Below are positions 1-4,290 of a stretch of DNA of 4,290 nucleotides, one piece after another. Position numbers and translations under genes: made by a program. The DNA lies in IMG/VR virus record IMGVR_UViG_2740892230_000030, positions 1-4,290 of that record, one strand, 5' to 3'. Below the pieces are notes generated by a model. The model was given only the letters and a program-made list of their open reading frames with translations, did not search any database and was not told the DNA's origin. Numbering within the stretch: the first letter of the stretch is position 1; every line of letters begins with the position of its first letter. Source of the DNA: a virus (lineage: Duplodnaviria; Heunggongvirae; Uroviricota; Caudoviricetes).

Positions 1-333
1 AGGCAGATAGCCTCAAGCACCCGCAGCAATTCTAACTATCCAATAGATCAATGCCAACTTCTTTTCCTGCAACATCTCTCATCATAAGTGACCCAAATTC
101 ATCCAATCAGCACAAAAGAAACATTTAAAGCGTGAATGCTACCGAACGTTCATTTCAATTACATCGTTTTGATTTTTAACAGTTTTCACCTCAACAAATC
201 AAATGGCATTAGCATTCATCATGGAAGAAAGACTGATAAAAATGATCATTTTCAATGACTTATGATCACACCGGGTATTGCCAAGTCATTCCTTTTACGC
301 CAGGATACCCACAAGTGAGTAGTCGAGGAGAGT

Positions 334-362
334 TTGCCAATTTTTGCGATATAAATTTCAAT
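334..362 (+). promoter_or_regulatory. Putative sigma70-like promoter for the 410..1507 CDS (TTGCCA at 334-339, 17-nt spacer, TTCAAT at 357-362)
   Basis: Read directly: -35-like hexamer with one mismatch to TTGACA, 17-nt spacer, -10-like hexamer matching TATAAT at 4 of 6 positions, about 50 nt upstream of the ATG. Weak -10; a guess only. Confidence 0.2.
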
Positions 363-409
363 GTCCGAAGAACCATTAATTGTTAATTGATTCTGTATAA
401 GGTATTAAC

Positions 410-1507
410 ATGACAATTTCATATATTCCTATTCTGAAAGCGAAACGTTCTGAGTTATCAGCTTTATCGCAGCTATCCATTGAAAAGAAATCAAAAATTT
501 TGCCATTACTCGAAATTGAACCAGTGCCAATTGACCCTGATTCAGGTATTGCCTTAAAGAGTTATAACGAGACTCTTATAGAGTTCGGAAAGAAAGTCTC
601 AAAATCTTGCTCAGATATGCAAGGTGTTTATATTGATGGATTATTAATTGAAGAGCATTTTATTTCTCCTGAAGATCATTACCCTATAATAAATGCGGTT
701 AATCAAGTTAGAGATATGGGGATAAGAGTTATTCCTGTCAGTTCACCAACTCGCCCATCTAACTATAAAAGAGCGATTGATGAATTAATGCAGAATGAAA
801 TATGCTTGAGATTAACCACGTTAGATCTGGTTAACCCACAATTAATAACGCATTACATTAATCATCTGGGAATTCCTTTATCAAATATTGATATAATTAT
901 TGACTTAAGAGATGAGTTAACCGAGGATAAAATTAATTCCGGCGAACTATATACTTTGGCAATGGGATTGATAAACAATCTGGCGCACCTCAATGAATAC
1001 AGAAAAGTGATTCTTTCTGGGGGTTCATTTCCTACAGATCTCAGTGATATTTCTGTTGGTCTATATTCTCAACCTCGAATCGAGTGGATTTTATGGCAGA
1101 GTTTAATGAATAGAAAAGAACTTGCCAGAAATGTGATTTATAGTGATTATGGAGTACAGCACCCCGACTTTAATAGGCTTTCGACGCGATTCCCTAGCGT
1201 ATCTGCCAGCGTCAGATACTCTGGAGATAATGACTTTTGGGTATTTCGAGGAAGAGTAGCTAATCGCTTTGGTTATGAACAATATGGTAAACATAGTGAG
1301 GATATTCTTGCTCATCGAGAATATTCAGGGCCTACATTCTGTGCGGGAGATAGAGACATAGAATATTATGCAAACGAGTATCAAGCCTACAAAGCCAATC
1401 CCTCTGGTAACTATAAATTTGGTAGCCCAGAGGTATGGCGTAGGATTGGGCAAAACCATCACATAACTAAGGTTGTTGAGCAACTCGCCACTCTTTACGG
1501 GCTTTAA
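410..1507 (+). CDS. 365-aa protein, putative 'beta protein' / sce7725-like family member (assignment from memory, unverified)
   Basis: Track ORF of 365 aa. ATG at 410 is preceded by AAGG (399-402) with a 7-nt spacer. The AT-rich composition is uniform across the ORF and no competing long ORF exists. The N-terminal motif YIPILKAKRSELSAL matches what I recall as the conserved N-terminus of the 'beta protein' family. High confidence that it is coding, low confidence in the family name. Confidence 0.8.
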   Translation: MTISYIPILKAKRSELSALSQLSIEKKSKILPLLEIEPVPIDPDSGIALKSYNETLIEFGKKVSKSCSDMQGVYIDGLLIEEHFISPEDHYPIINAVNQVRDMGIRVIPVSSPTRPSNYKRAIDELMQNEICLRLTTLDLVNPQLITHYINHLGIPLSNIDIIIDLRDELTEDKINSGELYTLAMGLINNLAHLNEYRKVILSGGSFPTDLSDISVGLYSQPRIEWILWQSLMNRKELARNVIYSDYGVQHPDFNRLSTRFPSVSASVRYSGDNDFWVFRGRVANRFGYEQYGKHSEDILAHREYSGPTFCAGDRDIEYYANEYQAYKANPSGNYKFGSPEVWRRIGQNHHITKVVEQLATLYGL

Positions 1508-2045
1508 GTTTAACTCGAACAGCTTCACGAAGCTCGCCAACATCCATACTATTGGCGAGTTTTGACCATAAGACGCGTTTAGGTTTATTTTTCAAATTCT
1601 GTAGCTCCCCTACATCACTTAATAGGGAAAGCAATTCATCTTTCCAAAGAAGCATTGTTAAGGAAAGTTTGTCCACTTGTGGATTCAACTTGCTAGTTCG
1701 AATTGTTTTTAAATGGATACCTTGCCGTGCACCTTGCGTAACTTGCTTTATCCCCCACCATGATGGAACTATGCTTAAAGCATCATAAAGATGGCAATCA
1801 GAGACAACCAAAGTTACTTTATCCATCACTGATGAGTAATGTTGCACCTGCGCTGGTAATCTGAGCAAGTTATCACTCTTGCTCTTCAACTCATAACCAT
1901 GTATAAGCCCATTGATCACTGCTATATCAGCTCTGCTAGCCCCTAGATTCATCGTAAACTCATCAATGATTAGGGTGTCAGGATCTTTATGATGATCTCT
2001 CAGAATCTTGGCATGCACAGCCTTTCTTACATCAATGTCTCTCAT
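1467..2045 (-). CDS. 192-aa PD-(D/E)xK-type nuclease-fold protein, possible sce7726-like partner of the upstream gene
   Basis: Track ORF of 192 aa. The N-terminal half contains the ordered motif set LIIDEF ... RADIAVI ... GYELKS, i.e. E, then D in a hydrophobic strand, then E-x-K, which is the canonical PD-(D/E)xK nuclease core. The Shine-Dalgarno is weak. It is convergent with the 410..1507 CDS and overlaps its 3' end by 41 nt. Confidence 0.75.
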   Translation of the reverse strand: MRDIDVRKAVHAKILRDHHKDPDTLIIDEFTMNLGASRADIAVINGLIHGYELKSKSDNLLRLPAQVQHYSSVMDKVTLVVSDCHLYDALSIVPSWWGIKQVTQGARQGIHLKTIRTSKLNPQVDKLSLTMLLWKDELLSLLSDVGELQNLKNKPKRVLWSKLANSMDVGELREAVRVKLKARKEWRVAQQP

Positions 2046-2077
2046 ACCATAGTTGCGCTTTCATCGACTCTCTCAAG

Positions 2078-2096
2078 CCATGATTCTATATCATGG
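2078..2096. promoter_or_regulatory. Perfect 7-5-7 inverted repeat (CCATGAT-tctat-ATCATGG), candidate operator upstream of the nuclease-like gene
   Basis: Read directly from the sequence. It lies 33-51 nt upstream of the ATG at 2045 on the minus strand, in the likely promoter region. Function is inferred from position only. Confidence 0.25.
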
Positions 2097-2222
2097 TTCG
2101 CATGAATGCCATTTGATATGACCAGTGGTTAAACATTGCACAGAAAAGTGGATGTGTATTTTAACAAAAGCAATGACGGCTAACCATGTTGGTATGTCGA
2201 TAAAATGTTTCAACGTAAGCAT
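2091..2222 (-). CDS. Possible 43-aa hydrophobic small protein (MLTLKHFIDIPTWLAVIAFVKIHIHF...)
   Basis: Internal ATG (2222..2220) of the 78-aa track ORF, immediately downstream of repeat copy 1. One hydrophobic stretch could be a single transmembrane helix. No strong ribosome-binding site. Speculative. Confidence 0.2.
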   Translation of the reverse strand: MLTLKHFIDIPTWLAVIAFVKIHIHFSVQCLTTGHIKWHSCEP

Positions 2223-2230
2223 TATCTGTT

Positions 2231-2303
2231 CCGCCCTTTCAGACGGTCTCCTGATGTTCTGAGGGTGCAGAATCCCTCCGGTTAAGGATTTAATAAAAAT
2301 CGT
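2231..2303. repeat. Direct repeat, copy 1 of a ~74-bp element (CCGCCCTTTC..GGTTAAGGATTTAATAAAAATCGT)
   Basis: Aligns to 2593..2666 with 3 differences (two substitutions and one 1-nt indel). It abuts the N-run at 2304-2313. Confidence 0.85.
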
Positions 2304-2313
2304 NNNNNNNNNN
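2304..2313. other. Run of 10 N (unresolved sequence)
   Basis: Literal N characters, located at the junction of a repeat and a paralogous gene. Confidence 1.
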
Positions 2314-2585
2314 GCAACCAGACACAAACCGGGCCATCTTCCGTATCATGAATGGAACCAATAAACCAGCCATCGCCCTCTGGTCGTTCCGGTTCCCATG
2401 CAGAAATANNNNNNNNNNTCCTCTTCGTCTTTTATTTCGTGGTATGAGTAATTGCAGTAGTTAAAGAAAATATCTTTAGCTTCATCCTGTATTTCATCTG
2501 GTGTTGCATCATCATCCACTTCGAATTCATCCTCGAAATCTCCACCGGCTATTCCCGTTTCAATAATTATTTTGAATTTTCGCAT
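2314..2585 (-). CDS. Very acidic small protein, paralog 1; interrupted by two N-runs, true length and frame unresolved
   Basis: ATG at 2585 opens a 55-codon highly acidic N-terminus (MRKFKIIIETGIAGGDFEDEFEVDDDATPDEIQDE...). Beyond the N-run at 2409-2418, the segment 2314-2408 encodes ISAWEPERPEGDGWFIGSIHDTEDGPVCVWL, near-identical to the C-terminus of the 2714..3025 protein. The two parts are out of phase across a 10-nt gap, so the N-run length is not real or the gene is disrupted. Confidence 0.5.
2409..2418. other. Run of 10 N (unresolved sequence)
   Basis: Literal N characters inside the acidic paralog 1 gene. Confidence 1.
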
Positions 2586-2592
2586 TTCACTA

Positions 2593-2666
2593 CCGCCCTT
2601 TCGGACGGCCTCCTGATGTTCTGAGGGTGCAGGAATCCCTCCGGTTAAGGATTTAATAAAAATCGT
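2593..2666. repeat. Direct repeat, copy 2 of the ~74-bp element
   Basis: Aligns to 2231..2303. It lies between the stop of the 2714..3025 CDS and the ATG at 2585. Confidence 0.85.
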
Positions 2667-2713
2667 TTCTGATTTAAATCTTCAGTATTTAGTTGTTAGT
2701 CGGTTTATAGCCT

Positions 2714-3025
2714 TTATGCTTCGGCCTTATTTCTCAGCCATACACAAACCGGGCCATCTTCGGTGTCATGTATTGAACCAATAAACCATCCATTGCCCTC
2801 TGGTCGTTCCGGTTCCCATGCAGAAATATCAGCATCACACGCATCAAGGTCAGCACATCCTTCATCTCTGAAGCAGAGGACGTATTGAAGATTATTTTCC
2901 TCCATCCAGGCGTTAAACTCTTCCGTTGAAATATATTCCCGACCGTCACAGAATTTTTCATATTCAGGATGCGTCCAGTAGCCATATTCATCACGTACTA
3001 CTGGTATTTCTTTAATTTCATTCAT
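2714..3025 (-). CDS. 103-aa very acidic small protein, paralog 2; function unknown, DNA-mimic or anti-defence role is speculation
   Basis: Track ORF of 103 aa with no N-run. By hand count about one residue in four is D or E and fewer than one in ten is K or R. The ATG overlaps the stop of the upstream 3018..3272 CDS (ATGAATGA), implying translational coupling. The C-terminal ~31 aa are shared with paralog 1. Confidence 0.7.
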   Translation of the reverse strand: MNEIKEIPVVRDEYGYWTHPEYEKFCDGREYISTEEFNAWMEENNLQYVLCFRDEGCADLDACDADISAWEPERPEGNGWFIGSIHDTEDGPVCVWLRNKAEA

Positions 3026-3272
3026 TTCTGTTCTCCCACGTTTTCAGACTTTCACCACAGAACGGACAAAATGAAACCCGAACTGGTAATTTAGAAAATT
3101 CACCGGAACGCAACATCACAAAATCAGGACCGCGAGTTAAACTCTCATTCCAGATTTTGTATATCAGCAGACCTTTTCGCATCGTGTATTCAGCATCATG
3201 CTCAAGGGATTTTGCCAGGGTCGTACACGGTTCTATCTTGTTGCCATAAACCTGGCATTTTGATTTACCCAC
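3018..3272 (-). CDS. 84-aa small Cys-containing protein (Cys pairs C-x9-C and C-x2-C); possible zinc-ribbon-like protein
   Basis: Track ORF of 84 aa with a GTG start preceded by AGGAGG at about 7 nt. The start overlaps the stop of the methyltransferase-like CDS (GTGGGTAA). The first 21 aa (MGKSKCQVYGNKIEPCTTLAK) are duplicated at 3784..3846. Confidence 0.6.
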   Translation of the reverse strand: MGKSKCQVYGNKIEPCTTLAKSLEHDAEYTMRKGLLIYKIWNESLTRGPDFVMLRSGEFSKLPVRVSFCPFCGESLKTWENRNE

Positions 3273-3753
3273 TGGTCGCCTCCTTCACAAAAATAATCCA
3301 ATGTGTTTTATCGTTCTTACCGGTGCGCTGGCTGATGATTGGTTTCGCGTCGGTTAGTGCCAATATCTGGCGGACAGATATTTGCGTTTCATTCCATTTA
3401 AAAATCAGAACGCCATGTGGCCACAACACACGAAAAGCTTCTTTAAATCCCTGCCGCAAATCATCACGCCAGGTATCTTTATTCAACCGTCCATATTTCT
3501 TTCCCATCCAGGCTTTATCACCAACACACTCAAGATGCGGAGGGTCGAATACAACAACCGGAAACGATGCGTCTGCAAATGGTAATGCTCGAAAATCTGC
3601 TATCAGGTCAGGACTGATAATCAGGCGTCGTCCATCACACAATGTGTGCTCTTCTTTTCTGATATCGCTAAATATCGCCCGGTCGTCATTCTTATCGAAC
3701 CAGAACATACGGCTGCCACAGCACATATCAAGAATGGTTGCCGGTGCACTCAC
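3265..3753 (-). CDS. Small (~162 aa) SAM-dependent methyltransferase-like protein, amino-methyltransferase type, with no visible restriction partner
   Basis: Motifs in Rossmann-methyltransferase order: ILDMCCGS (motif I-like), AIFSDIR (acidic motif II-like), VVVFDPPH (motif IV, DPPY-like). The likely start is GTG at 3753, preceded by AGGAGG with a 7-nt spacer. The 193-aa track ORF 3265..3846 fuses this gene to an upstream small ORF across an N-run and should not be taken literally. Confidence 0.7.
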   Translation of the reverse strand: MSAPATILDMCCGSRMFWFDKNDDRAIFSDIRKEEHTLCDGRRLIISPDLIADFRALPFADASFPVVVFDPPHLECVGDKAWMGKKYGRLNKDTWRDDLRQGFKEAFRVLWPHGVLIFKWNETQISVRQILALTDAKPIISQRTGKNDKTHWIIFVKEATSG

Positions 3754-3773
3754 TGCGCTACCTCCTGAAAATT

Positions 3774-3783
3774 NNNNNNNNNN
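3774..3783. other. Run of 10 N (unresolved sequence)
   Basis: Literal N characters between the small-ORF paralog and the methyltransferase-like gene start. Confidence 1.
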
Positions 3784-3846
3784 CTTTGCCAGTGCTGCAC
3801 ATGGTTCTATCTTGTTGCCATTAACCTGGCATTTTGATTCACTCAC
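3784..3846 (-). CDS. 5' fragment (21 codons) of a paralog of the 84-aa Cys-containing protein; 3' part lost in the N-run
   Basis: GTG start at 3846 overlaps the stop of the upstream 55-codon-unit gene. The encoded MSESKCQVNGNKIEPCAALAK matches the N-terminus of the 3018..3272 protein at 17 of 21 positions. Confidence 0.45.
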
Positions 3847-4031
3847 CGCACCACCTCCTCAAAATTCCCCTGATAAAACGCCAGTACGCGCTGCATAACT
3901 TCGCTCTTCCGGCACTCGAGACAGATTATGTTCAGACGCCTGTCGTAGCGGCGTATTTCGCCATCTGGTAATGACCAGATAAGGTCCGGATCAACCGCAG
4001 ATGGTTTCTTCAGCTTTGCCCTTGAGAGTTT
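3843..4031 (-). CDS. Small protein, repeat unit B (…KLSRAKLKKPSAVDPDLIWSLPDGEIRRYDRRLNIICLECRKSEVMQRVLAFYQGNFEEVVR*); 5' end lies in the N-run
   Basis: My own translation of the minus strand from 4031 gives 62 codons then TGA at 3845..3843. No start codon is visible because the 5' end abuts the N-run at 4032-4041. Function unknown. Confidence 0.45.
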   Translation of the reverse strand, partial: KLSRAKLKKPSAVDPDLIWSLPDGEIRRYDRRLNIICLECRKSEVMQRVLAFYQGNFEEVVR

Positions 4032-4041
4032 NNNNNNNNNN
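4032..4041. other. Run of 10 N (unresolved sequence)
   Basis: Literal N characters exactly at the junction of the two 165-bp tandem units. Confidence 1.
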
Positions 4042-4206
4042 ACCCTGATAAAACGACAATATGCGCTGCATAACTTCGCTCTTCCGGCACTCGCGACAGA
4101 TTATGTTCTGACGCCTGTCGTAGCGACGTATTTCTCCGTCAGGTAATAGCCAGATAAGGTCCGGATCAACCACAGATGGTTTCTTCAGCTTTGCCCTTGA
4201 GAGTTT
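4042..4206 (-). CDS. Repeat unit A coding segment (KLSRAKLKKPSVVDPDLIWLLPDGEIRRYDRRQNIICRECRKSEVMQRILSFYQG), bounded on both sides by N-runs
   Basis: Open frame of 55 codons, paralogous to unit B. Start and stop are not visible. Confidence 0.4.
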
Positions 4207-4216
4207 NNNNNNNNNN
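4207..4216. other. Run of 10 N (unresolved sequence)
   Basis: Literal N characters upstream of repeat unit A. Confidence 1.
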
Positions 4217-4290
4217 TTTACGAGCCTGTTCAGACGGGAATAACCCGTAGCCAGAATTGTATACATCGCCACTGGCAACCAGCTCTCTGG
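4217..4290 (-). CDS. Possible 3' portion of a minus-strand gene that begins beyond the window edge (…PESWLPVAMYTILATGYSRLNRLV…)
   Basis: The frame is open from the window edge to the N-run. The track ORF starts at TTG 4278, but the frame is also open upstream of it. Identity unknown. Confidence 0.25.

Follow-up and report, generated by a model that had tools for sequence, protein, structure and literature searches.

A recurrent intergenic leader element of lambdoid prophages, present as two allelic copies in a scaffolded viral contig

In phage T4, the ribosome-binding sites of genes 38 and 25 are split, or "accommodated": a hairpin bridges the spacing between the Shine-Dalgarno (SD) sequence and the start codon, reducing it from 22 to 5 nt and from 27 to 11 nt, respectively, and translation drops when mutations destabilize the hairpin (Nivinskas 1999; Malys & Nivinskas 2009; reviewed in PMC3014915). 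Phages of the T4 type also carry PeSLs, conserved intergenic motifs of ~70 nt that combine a strong sigma-70 early promoter with a stem-loop terminator and recur at the borders of small accessory genes in plastic regions, where differing flanks imply shuffling by homologous recombination (Arbiol et al. 2010, PMC2839356; PMC4122927). In lambdoid phages, short near-identical patches between unrelated segments have been described as the sites of crossovers made by Red/RecT-type recombinases (Martinsohn 2008, PMC2327257; De Paepe 2014, PMC3945230); lambda takes up Rac and Qin DNA through homologous exchange, and Red-beta requires 23–27 bp of identity (PMC3945230).

The window analyzed here, a stretch of 4,290 nt from a tailed virus (Caudoviricetes; positions 1 to 4,290 of IMG/VR record IMGVR_UViG_2740892230_000030), contains an intergenic element that resembles each of these systems in part. 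Like the ribosome-binding sites of T4 genes 38 and 25, the element lies at phage intercistronic junctions and has an SD sequence 22–27 nt from the AUG, with a predicted stable hairpin filling the gap so as to leave a predicted effective spacing of 5–11 nt. Unlike them, it is borne by temperate lambdoid phages, is unrelated in sequence, has a GNRA loop, and is a cassette that serves many genes rather than one, its function being read from sequence. Like a PeSL, it is conserved, intergenic and some 70 nt long, contains a stem-loop, and is found at variable accessory-gene borders with differing flanks; unlike a PeSL, it has neither promoter nor terminator and bears a ribosome-binding site. No promoter-like site was found in or next to either copy, the stem-loop has no U tract, and no terminator-like site was found in 2000–3100. 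The element also shares with the lambdoid mosaics the occurrence of a short near-identical patch between unrelated segments, although the mosaicism studies (PMC2327257, PMC3945230) used coding homologies, namely tail fibre and lysis genes, and describe no dedicated recurrent intergenic patch.

Two allelic copies on one scaffold path

Alignment of positions 2231–2303 with 2593–2666 revealed two substitutions and one single-base indel, confirming the two near-identical copies reported in the first-pass annotation of this DNA, and a chance origin of the match is ruled out. A covariance model of the element detected two full copies in the window, both on the minus strand, at 2221–2305 (88 bits; copy A) and 2583–2668 (104 bits; copy B). 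The genes near the copies are likewise all on the minus strand. The copies, their neighbors and the adjoining scaffold joins are as follows, with the basis of each assignment in brackets.

2091–2222, minus strand: 43-aa ORF whose start lies 8 nt after copy A (ORF list, closed-genome annotation)
2231–2303, minus strand: element copy A, L001-type haplotype (alignment, covariance model 88 bits, BLAST)
2304–2313, no strand: 10-N scaffold join, standing for 67 nt of haplotype A (closed-genome BLAST)
2314–2408, minus strand: isolated 95-nt unitig, C-terminal part of the L001-type rac22-like gene (repeat search, BLAST, shared runs)
2409–2418, no strand: 10-N scaffold join, switch from haplotype A to haplotype B (BLAST and shared-run alignment)
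2419–2585, minus strand: DUF7167 gene behind copy B (closed-genome comparison)
2593–2666, minus strand: element copy B, complete, 55989-type haplotype (pairwise alignment, covariance model 104 bits, closed-genome BLAST)
2714–3025, minus strand: rac22-like 103-aa gene, upstream of copy B (ORF list, closed-genome annotation)

Copy B is flanked on one side by the rac22-like gene (stop at 2714) and on the other by the DUF7167 gene (start codon at 2583–2585), which encodes 60 aa in closed genomes and is cut in the window by the N run at 2409–2418. The AT-rich 5′ leader of copy A is interrupted by the N run that begins at 2304.

Five runs of 10 Ns (2304–2313, 2409–2418, 3774–3783, 4032–4041 and 4207–4216), the first of which abuts copy A, break the window up into six pieces. 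Certain short-read scaffolders typically write joins of this fixed length. The six pieces were compared by BLAST with two closed genomes, NZ_CP027544 (a prophage of E. coli 2013C-3264, hereafter L001; haplotype A) and a prophage of E. coli 55989 (hereafter L127; haplotype B). Pieces 1–2303, 2314–2408, 3784–4031 and 4217–4290 were 100% identical to L001 and in the same order (L001 1501–3803, 3871–3965, 4347–4594 and 4616–4689), while pieces 2419–3773 and 4042–4206 were 100% identical to one unbroken stretch of L127 (5001–6520); the window therefore interleaves two collinear haplotypes. In an alignment of the haplotypes, each haplotype-A piece started at the first base past a run common to both and ended 34 nt into the next shared run (3803 = 3770 + 33, 3965 = 3932 + 33, 4594 = 4561 + 33), and the haplotype-B piece 4042–4206 obeyed the same end rule (6520 = 6487 + 33). 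These boundaries are the signature of de Bruijn-graph unitigs, with the arms of a bubble written in series; the unitig at 2314–2408, for instance, is the allelic counterpart of 2735–2828. With the covariance model, one full copy of the element was found in each closed or viral locus examined, and none of ~134 other loci had two, as the window alone does. No closed genome containing both haplotypes at 100% identity was found. Taken together, these data show that the repeat copies are one intergenic element from two related Rac/Qin-like lambdoid prophages, or from two haplotypes in one sample, and that their tandem arrangement is a scaffolder artefact, produced by threading bubble arms serially with 10-N joins, with no duplication involved.

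The first-pass annotation had placed the two copies around one gene for an acidic protein, had taken that gene for one of a set of paralogs far less conserved than the repeat, and had suggested, as one of two possibilities, that the repeat was a recombination site that drove a duplication. What surrounds the gene is instead an N-joined alternation of haplotypes, each closed genome having one copy, and the copies are allelic, derived from two prophages and concatenated by the scaffolder. The supposed first paralog (ORF 2346–2585) is a chimera of the first 55 codons of the DUF7167 gene and the C-terminus of the rac22-like gene, joined across Ns. No similarity was found between the DUF7167 protein and the rac22-like protein, which are the two real and unrelated proteins behind it, and the apparent paralogy stems from the 95-nt allelic unitig 2314–2408. 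Nor does the element stand out in conservation, since the haplotypes are 96.6% identical over the 680 nt that run from the element through two upstream genes, versus 95.9% for the element itself; homology between the haplotypes ceases directly after the element on its downstream side. A genuine tandem duplication, generated by recombination between two 74-bp repeats, would fit the window as given, where the copies lie 362 bp apart, and real phages (L004 and L021) do bear a full copy together with half-copies within ~1.3 kb. The contiguity of both copies and the intervening segment on one molecule that such an event entails was, however, not found. The alternation of pieces at 100% identity, the unitig-type boundary at every N run, the chimeric nature of the intervening gene and the count of 0 of ~134 loci with two full copies render this explanation extremely improbable.

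A second apparent tandem repeat in the window, 3868–4041 and 4043–4216 (174 nt, 93% identity), is an artefact too, consisting of allelic DUF977-gene segments of both haplotypes in series. ORF 3265–3846 on the minus strand crosses the N run 3774–3783 and is a chimera of a 55989-type class I SAM-dependent methyltransferase (162 aa in L127) and an L001-type rac21-like start. Caution is warranted with windows containing short N runs, which may be scaffold paths joining allelic prophage segments; such paths yield false tandem repeats, false paralogs and chimeric ORFs.

A conserved leader in lambdoid early operons

A nucleotide search with a 95-nt query found the element in 2604 of 5426 complete E. 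coli genomes (about half), at 1–6 places in each, for a total of roughly 4100 copies, and nearly always on the chromosome, so that it is indeed dispersed elsewhere, a point that the first-pass annotation had proposed to check. It was also present in 19 phage records, among them Rac-SA53, mEp460 and ArgO145-type Stx phages. In the pattern-anchored IMG/VR samples, a 17-nt anchor gave more than 119 contigs with the element among the matches listed, a count that is a lower bound. Among species-representative genomes, homologous copies were confined to E. coli, Shigella flexneri, Citrobacter braakii and one MAG scaffold. A scan of species-representative genome contigs for an SD sequence plus hairpin returned 67 matches, 8 of them homologous (E. 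coli, Shigella, Citrobacter and one MAG); the remainder were rejected as non-homologous, being unrelated terminators or coding GC hairpins. A 3-kb scaffold of a Collinsella sp. MAG (L173; JAIHTM010000290.1) bears a perfect coliphage element before a DUF7167 gene, and this actinobacterial MAG contig is probably mis-binned. Of the K-12 prophages, Qin, Rac and CPS-53 were checked and lacked the element, and K-12 transcript maps were uninformative for this reason.

In annotated genomes, the element was located in the rightward early operon, 3′ of the replication genes and 5′ of hokD, rusA and Q, and further in the leftward "ea" region of Stx phages. It follows one small accessory gene and ends 6–11 nt ahead of the ATG of the next gene. 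These results show that the element is a conserved leader of ~60–75 nt in the early (PR "nin-like" and PL "ea") operons of lambdoid prophages, with a host range of E. coli, Shigella and Citrobacter. Its presence at homologous loci, where absence would have spoken against it, and its position before and behind many unrelated genes bear out the earlier suggestion of an independently conserved intergenic element as opposed to the tail of one gene. A literature search by sequence, covering 8 million papers, found no published description of the element and no occurrence of the hairpin sequence, and the element has no Rfam family. The repeated unit is thus a genuine, narrowly distributed and apparently undescribed prophage leader cassette.

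Distant DUF7167 homologues were sought as a source of diverged leaders, but the family proved essentially limited to E. coli (62–100% identity) and was of no use for that reason. Many database DUF7167 entries are 78–93 aa long, not 60 aa, with an extra N-terminus that would run through the leader element. Because this N-terminus would have to be translated through the leader, the long versions, those of 84–93 aa in particular, are probably upstream-start miscalls.

Anatomy, predicted folding and a proposed split Shine-Dalgarno leader

On the sense (minus) strand, the 5′ part of the element is an AT-rich leader with stop codons, followed by AATCCTTAACC / AAUCCUUAACC and by hairpin 1 (GGAGGG, a loop of 8–10 nt and CCCUC); next comes AGAACAUC. 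The 3′ part comprises AGGAGG, the 16-nt hairpin 2 (CCGCCC-GAAA-GGGCGG), a 6–11-nt spacer and the AUG. The corresponding features of the two window copies are listed below.

2231–2246, minus strand: predicted hairpin 2 of copy A, CCGUCU-GAAA-GGGCGG (folding)
2247–2252, minus strand: SD sequence AGGAGA of copy A (sequence)
2593–2608, minus strand: predicted hairpin 2 of copy B, CCGUCC-GAAA-GGGCGG (folding)
2609–2614, minus strand: SD sequence AGGAGG of copy B (sequence)
2623–2642, minus strand: predicted hairpin 1 of copy B, G-GAGGG / CCCUC with a 9-nt loop (RNAalifold, pairing analysis)
2643–2653, minus strand: AAUCCUUAACC of copy B (RNAalifold, half-copy comparison)

Hairpin 2 of copy B has six base pairs, including one G.U, and a GNRA loop (predicted ΔG −9.7 kcal/mol), and that of copy A has two G.U pairs (predicted ΔG −7.1 kcal/mol). 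In copy B, the linear distance between the SD sequence and the ATG is 23 nt, which formation of hairpin 2 would shorten to 7 nt. The 5′ arm of hairpin 1 in copy B is SD-like, and the UCCU within its AAUCCUUAACC is predicted to be able to pair with the AGGA of the SD sequence. Across the collected instances, the ATG follows hairpin 2 by 6–11 nt in 120 of 126, and a few copies have no adjacent downstream gene (L150, L166, L170 and L061). The loop of hairpin 2 is GAAA or GGCA, both GNRA, and rarely UAAA.

Each half of the element also occurs alone. The 5′ half is found as the ordinary ribosome-binding region of other genes, and the SD-plus-hairpin half is found 4 nt past the stop codon of a 70-aa gene, where four different genes follow it. 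A Chi sequence (GCTGGTGG) lies ~75 nt 5′ of these hairpin-only half-copies, within the preceding 70-aa gene (L004 4060–4190 and L021 2350–2480, minus strand). A coding reading of the element was rejected on account of 1-nt indels in loop 1 and an in-frame TAA directly 5′ of the ATG in the commonest variant.

RNAalifold predicted hairpins 1 and 2 plus an outer UCCU/AGGA helix, and 97.9% of the cells were paired, versus at most 56.5% for slid controls. Hairpin 2 had a median ΔG of −12.4 kcal/mol and a median ensemble probability in natural context of 0.9985; for the window copies, with their G.U pairs, the predicted probability was 0.54 (copy B) and 0.33 (copy A), with near-isoenergetic alternatives. 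Changes from C-G to U-G in hairpin 2 were seen in 22 cells, all on the 5′ arm, and pairing is therefore kept only in the sense-strand RNA; 11 cells were unpaired, and there was one compensatory change, from G-C to A-U. Covariation among the 60 unique variants was not significant, 139–282 of 500 shuffles reaching the observed values, because the copies are more than 85% alike. The folding and covariance check advised in the first-pass annotation thus yielded predicted hairpins in the consensus, but no covariation that was significant against shuffles. When the sequences were folded singly, the z-scores were modest (−1.9 and −0.7) and the MFE structures differed between the window copies, so that no claim was built on those structures. 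On average, the SD sequence had a predicted unpaired fraction of only 42%. The GGATGG variants, which occur at ten loci besides L209, disrupt hairpin 1. At L209, both arms of hairpin 1 are changed (GAGGG/CCCTC to GAGTG/CTCTC) and the original pair is lost, and a perfect helix of 5 bp (GAGTG/CACTC) arises in a register displaced by 2 nt.

From this anatomy we infer that a split ribosome-binding site is the best-supported reading of the element. In such a site, a strong SD sequence lies more than 15 nt from the start codon, and a stable hairpin wholly between the SD sequence and the AUG restores a spacing of 5–11 nt. Here the linear distance from AGGAGG (or AGGAGA) to the ATG is 22–27 nt in the 60 unique variants, and the hairpin leaves a residual 6–11 nt. 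Translation would begin at an AGGAGG 22–27 nt from the start codon, which folding of the abutting, GNRA-capped hairpin 2 would bring to an effective 6–11 nt. The upstream half, with its UCCUU, GGAGGG and CCCUC, might in addition supply anti-SD and SD-like partners that tune access to the SD sequence. One downstream family bears its own GGAG at normal spacing, which might compete with the SD sequence. If unfolded, the 3′ arm GGGCGG of hairpin 2 is predicted to pair weakly with the anti-SD sequence (−6.6 kcal/mol), and hairpin 2 might for this reason repress translation and not enhance it.

Mosaic junctions and competing explanations

Clustering of the flanking ORFs gave ~10 upstream families and 8 downstream clusters including singletons, 5 of which were recurrent (DUF7167, a 155-aa protein, DUF4014, a 174-aa protein and the 43-aa ORF). 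Upstream and downstream families combine freely, the rac22-like gene alone having five different followers. For 70% of 4753 distinct-instance pairs, ungapped similarity stopped no more than 5 nt from the 3′ end of hairpin 2, and for 68% it stopped in the 10 nt upstream of AATCC. When the element is followed by an unrelated insert, the break falls exactly past GGGCGG, as observed in the following cases.

Copy A: Beta/sce7726 island
Shigella: queH-like gene
Citrobacter: antisense gene

Because the element lies exactly at mosaic breakpoints, the term "recombination site" used in the first-pass annotation is reasonable in a general sense, although there is no duplication for it to account for. Near-identical stretches of ~60 nt precede many different genes, which suggests that the element may also be a homology patch, whose repeats phage recombinases would use to swap, delete and insert flanking cassettes; the shared ~60 nt exceeds the 23–27 bp needed by Red-beta. 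Combined with the assembly evidence, the explanation that we favor, and consider probable, is that the scaffolder placed allelic copies of a real leader in series, and that this leader serves as a split ribosome-binding site and as a homology patch, both roles being inferred. In a broader and more tentative form, which we regard as possible only, the element would be a mobile cassette of enterobacterial lambdoid prophages, that is, a portable split-SD leader ensuring the translation of accessory genes and a preferred Red/RecT crossover point. If true, it would stand as the translational equivalent of the PeSLs, the promoter-terminator cassettes of T4-type phages. The element bears on how the small accessory genes of lambdoid early operons come to be translated after shuffling, and on where the crossovers that build lambdoid mosaics occur.

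Other roles at the RNA level were weighed against the split ribosome-binding site. Hairpin 2 together with UCCU/CCCUC might attenuate translation instead of enhancing it, or the element might be an RNase E processing or stability site, in which the AU-rich leader and the hairpins uncouple the decay of neighboring cistrons. The RNAalifold consensus, which pairs UCCU with the AGGA of the SD sequence, is consistent with this pair of roles, as are the low average accessibility of that sequence (42% unpaired), the partial anti-SD complementarity of the 3′ arm, and a conserved block that stops exactly at the 3′ end of the hairpin even where no gene follows. AGGAGG (AGGAGA in copy A) nonetheless always adjoins the hairpin, also in the half-copies that come right after a stop codon, the distance from hairpin to ATG is held at 6–11 nt, and the outer helix, invariant across variants, is a predicted one, all of which makes attenuation or processing unlikely. 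It is also conceivable, with still smaller probability, that the element is a functionless, neutral leftover of fused ribosome-binding regions, spread recently by recombination among close coliphages. The narrow range (E. coli, Shigella and Citrobacter only), the low variation with its non-significant covariation, and the occurrence of the 5′ half elsewhere as an ordinary ribosome-binding site would all agree with such an origin; what argues against it is that ~60 nt between unrelated flanks are kept 85–100% identical in most pairs, and that substitutions in hairpin 2 strongly favor pairing in the sense RNA (22 U-G versus 11 unpaired cells).

A transcription signal, whether an intrinsic terminator, a nut/boxB-like antitermination site, a promoter or a small-RNA gene, can be given hardly any credence. 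The element does share with the boxB of lambda nut sites a GC stem capped by a GNRA-type loop and a location in early operons under antitermination. It differs from boxB in having a tetraloop and not a pentaloop, in lacking a boxA (CGCTCTTA) upstream, in lying far downstream of the cro/N positions and in a hairpin that adjoins an SD sequence and a start codon; a lambda-type nut site was rejected on the 4-nt loop, as compared with the 5-nt GNRNA of boxB, and on the missing boxA (CGCUCUUA). Neither a U tract nor a terminator-like site was seen on either strand, and the element contains nothing promoter-like. An intrinsic terminator was rejected because UAGUGAAAUG or AACAGAUAAUG, and not a U run, comes after the hairpin; the terminator scan was empty, in line with the earlier remark that no convincing terminator hairpin could be folded. 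The small-RNA reading was rejected on anatomy, and no Rfam family matched at E ≤ 1 in 2000–2800.

Several features around the element were noted in passing. Within the window, 410–1507 (plus strand) and 1467–2045 (minus strand) form a convergent gene pair with a 41-nt overlap. The product of the first is a Beta_protein (PF14350, E 3.8e-52), with a PADLOC match to PD-Lambda-2_C (E 1.8e-41); that of the second is a protein of the "sce7726 family", with a PADLOC match to "cll" (E 2.4e-28). The pair, which is absent from the 55989-type prophage, is probably a defense or moron island inserted directly 3′ of copy A in the L001-type prophage. The 43-aa ORF at 2091–2222 may not be a real gene, since it is without annotation in closed genomes and is interrupted by IS1 in phage Rac-SA53. 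This IS1 (L003 2612–3377) lies just 3′ of the element, within the 43-aa ORF, and is flanked by an 8-bp duplication; a second IS1 was found near the element in E. coli 55989 (L127 3375–4072). This stretch seems to tolerate or attract insertions. In an Rfam 15 covariance-model search of the window, the sole match at E ≤ 1 was a truncated sok at 1–22 on the minus strand, the 5′ end of the sok antitoxin RNA (RF01794, E 0.19), cut by the window edge; in the closed genome L001, hokD lies just to the left of the window.
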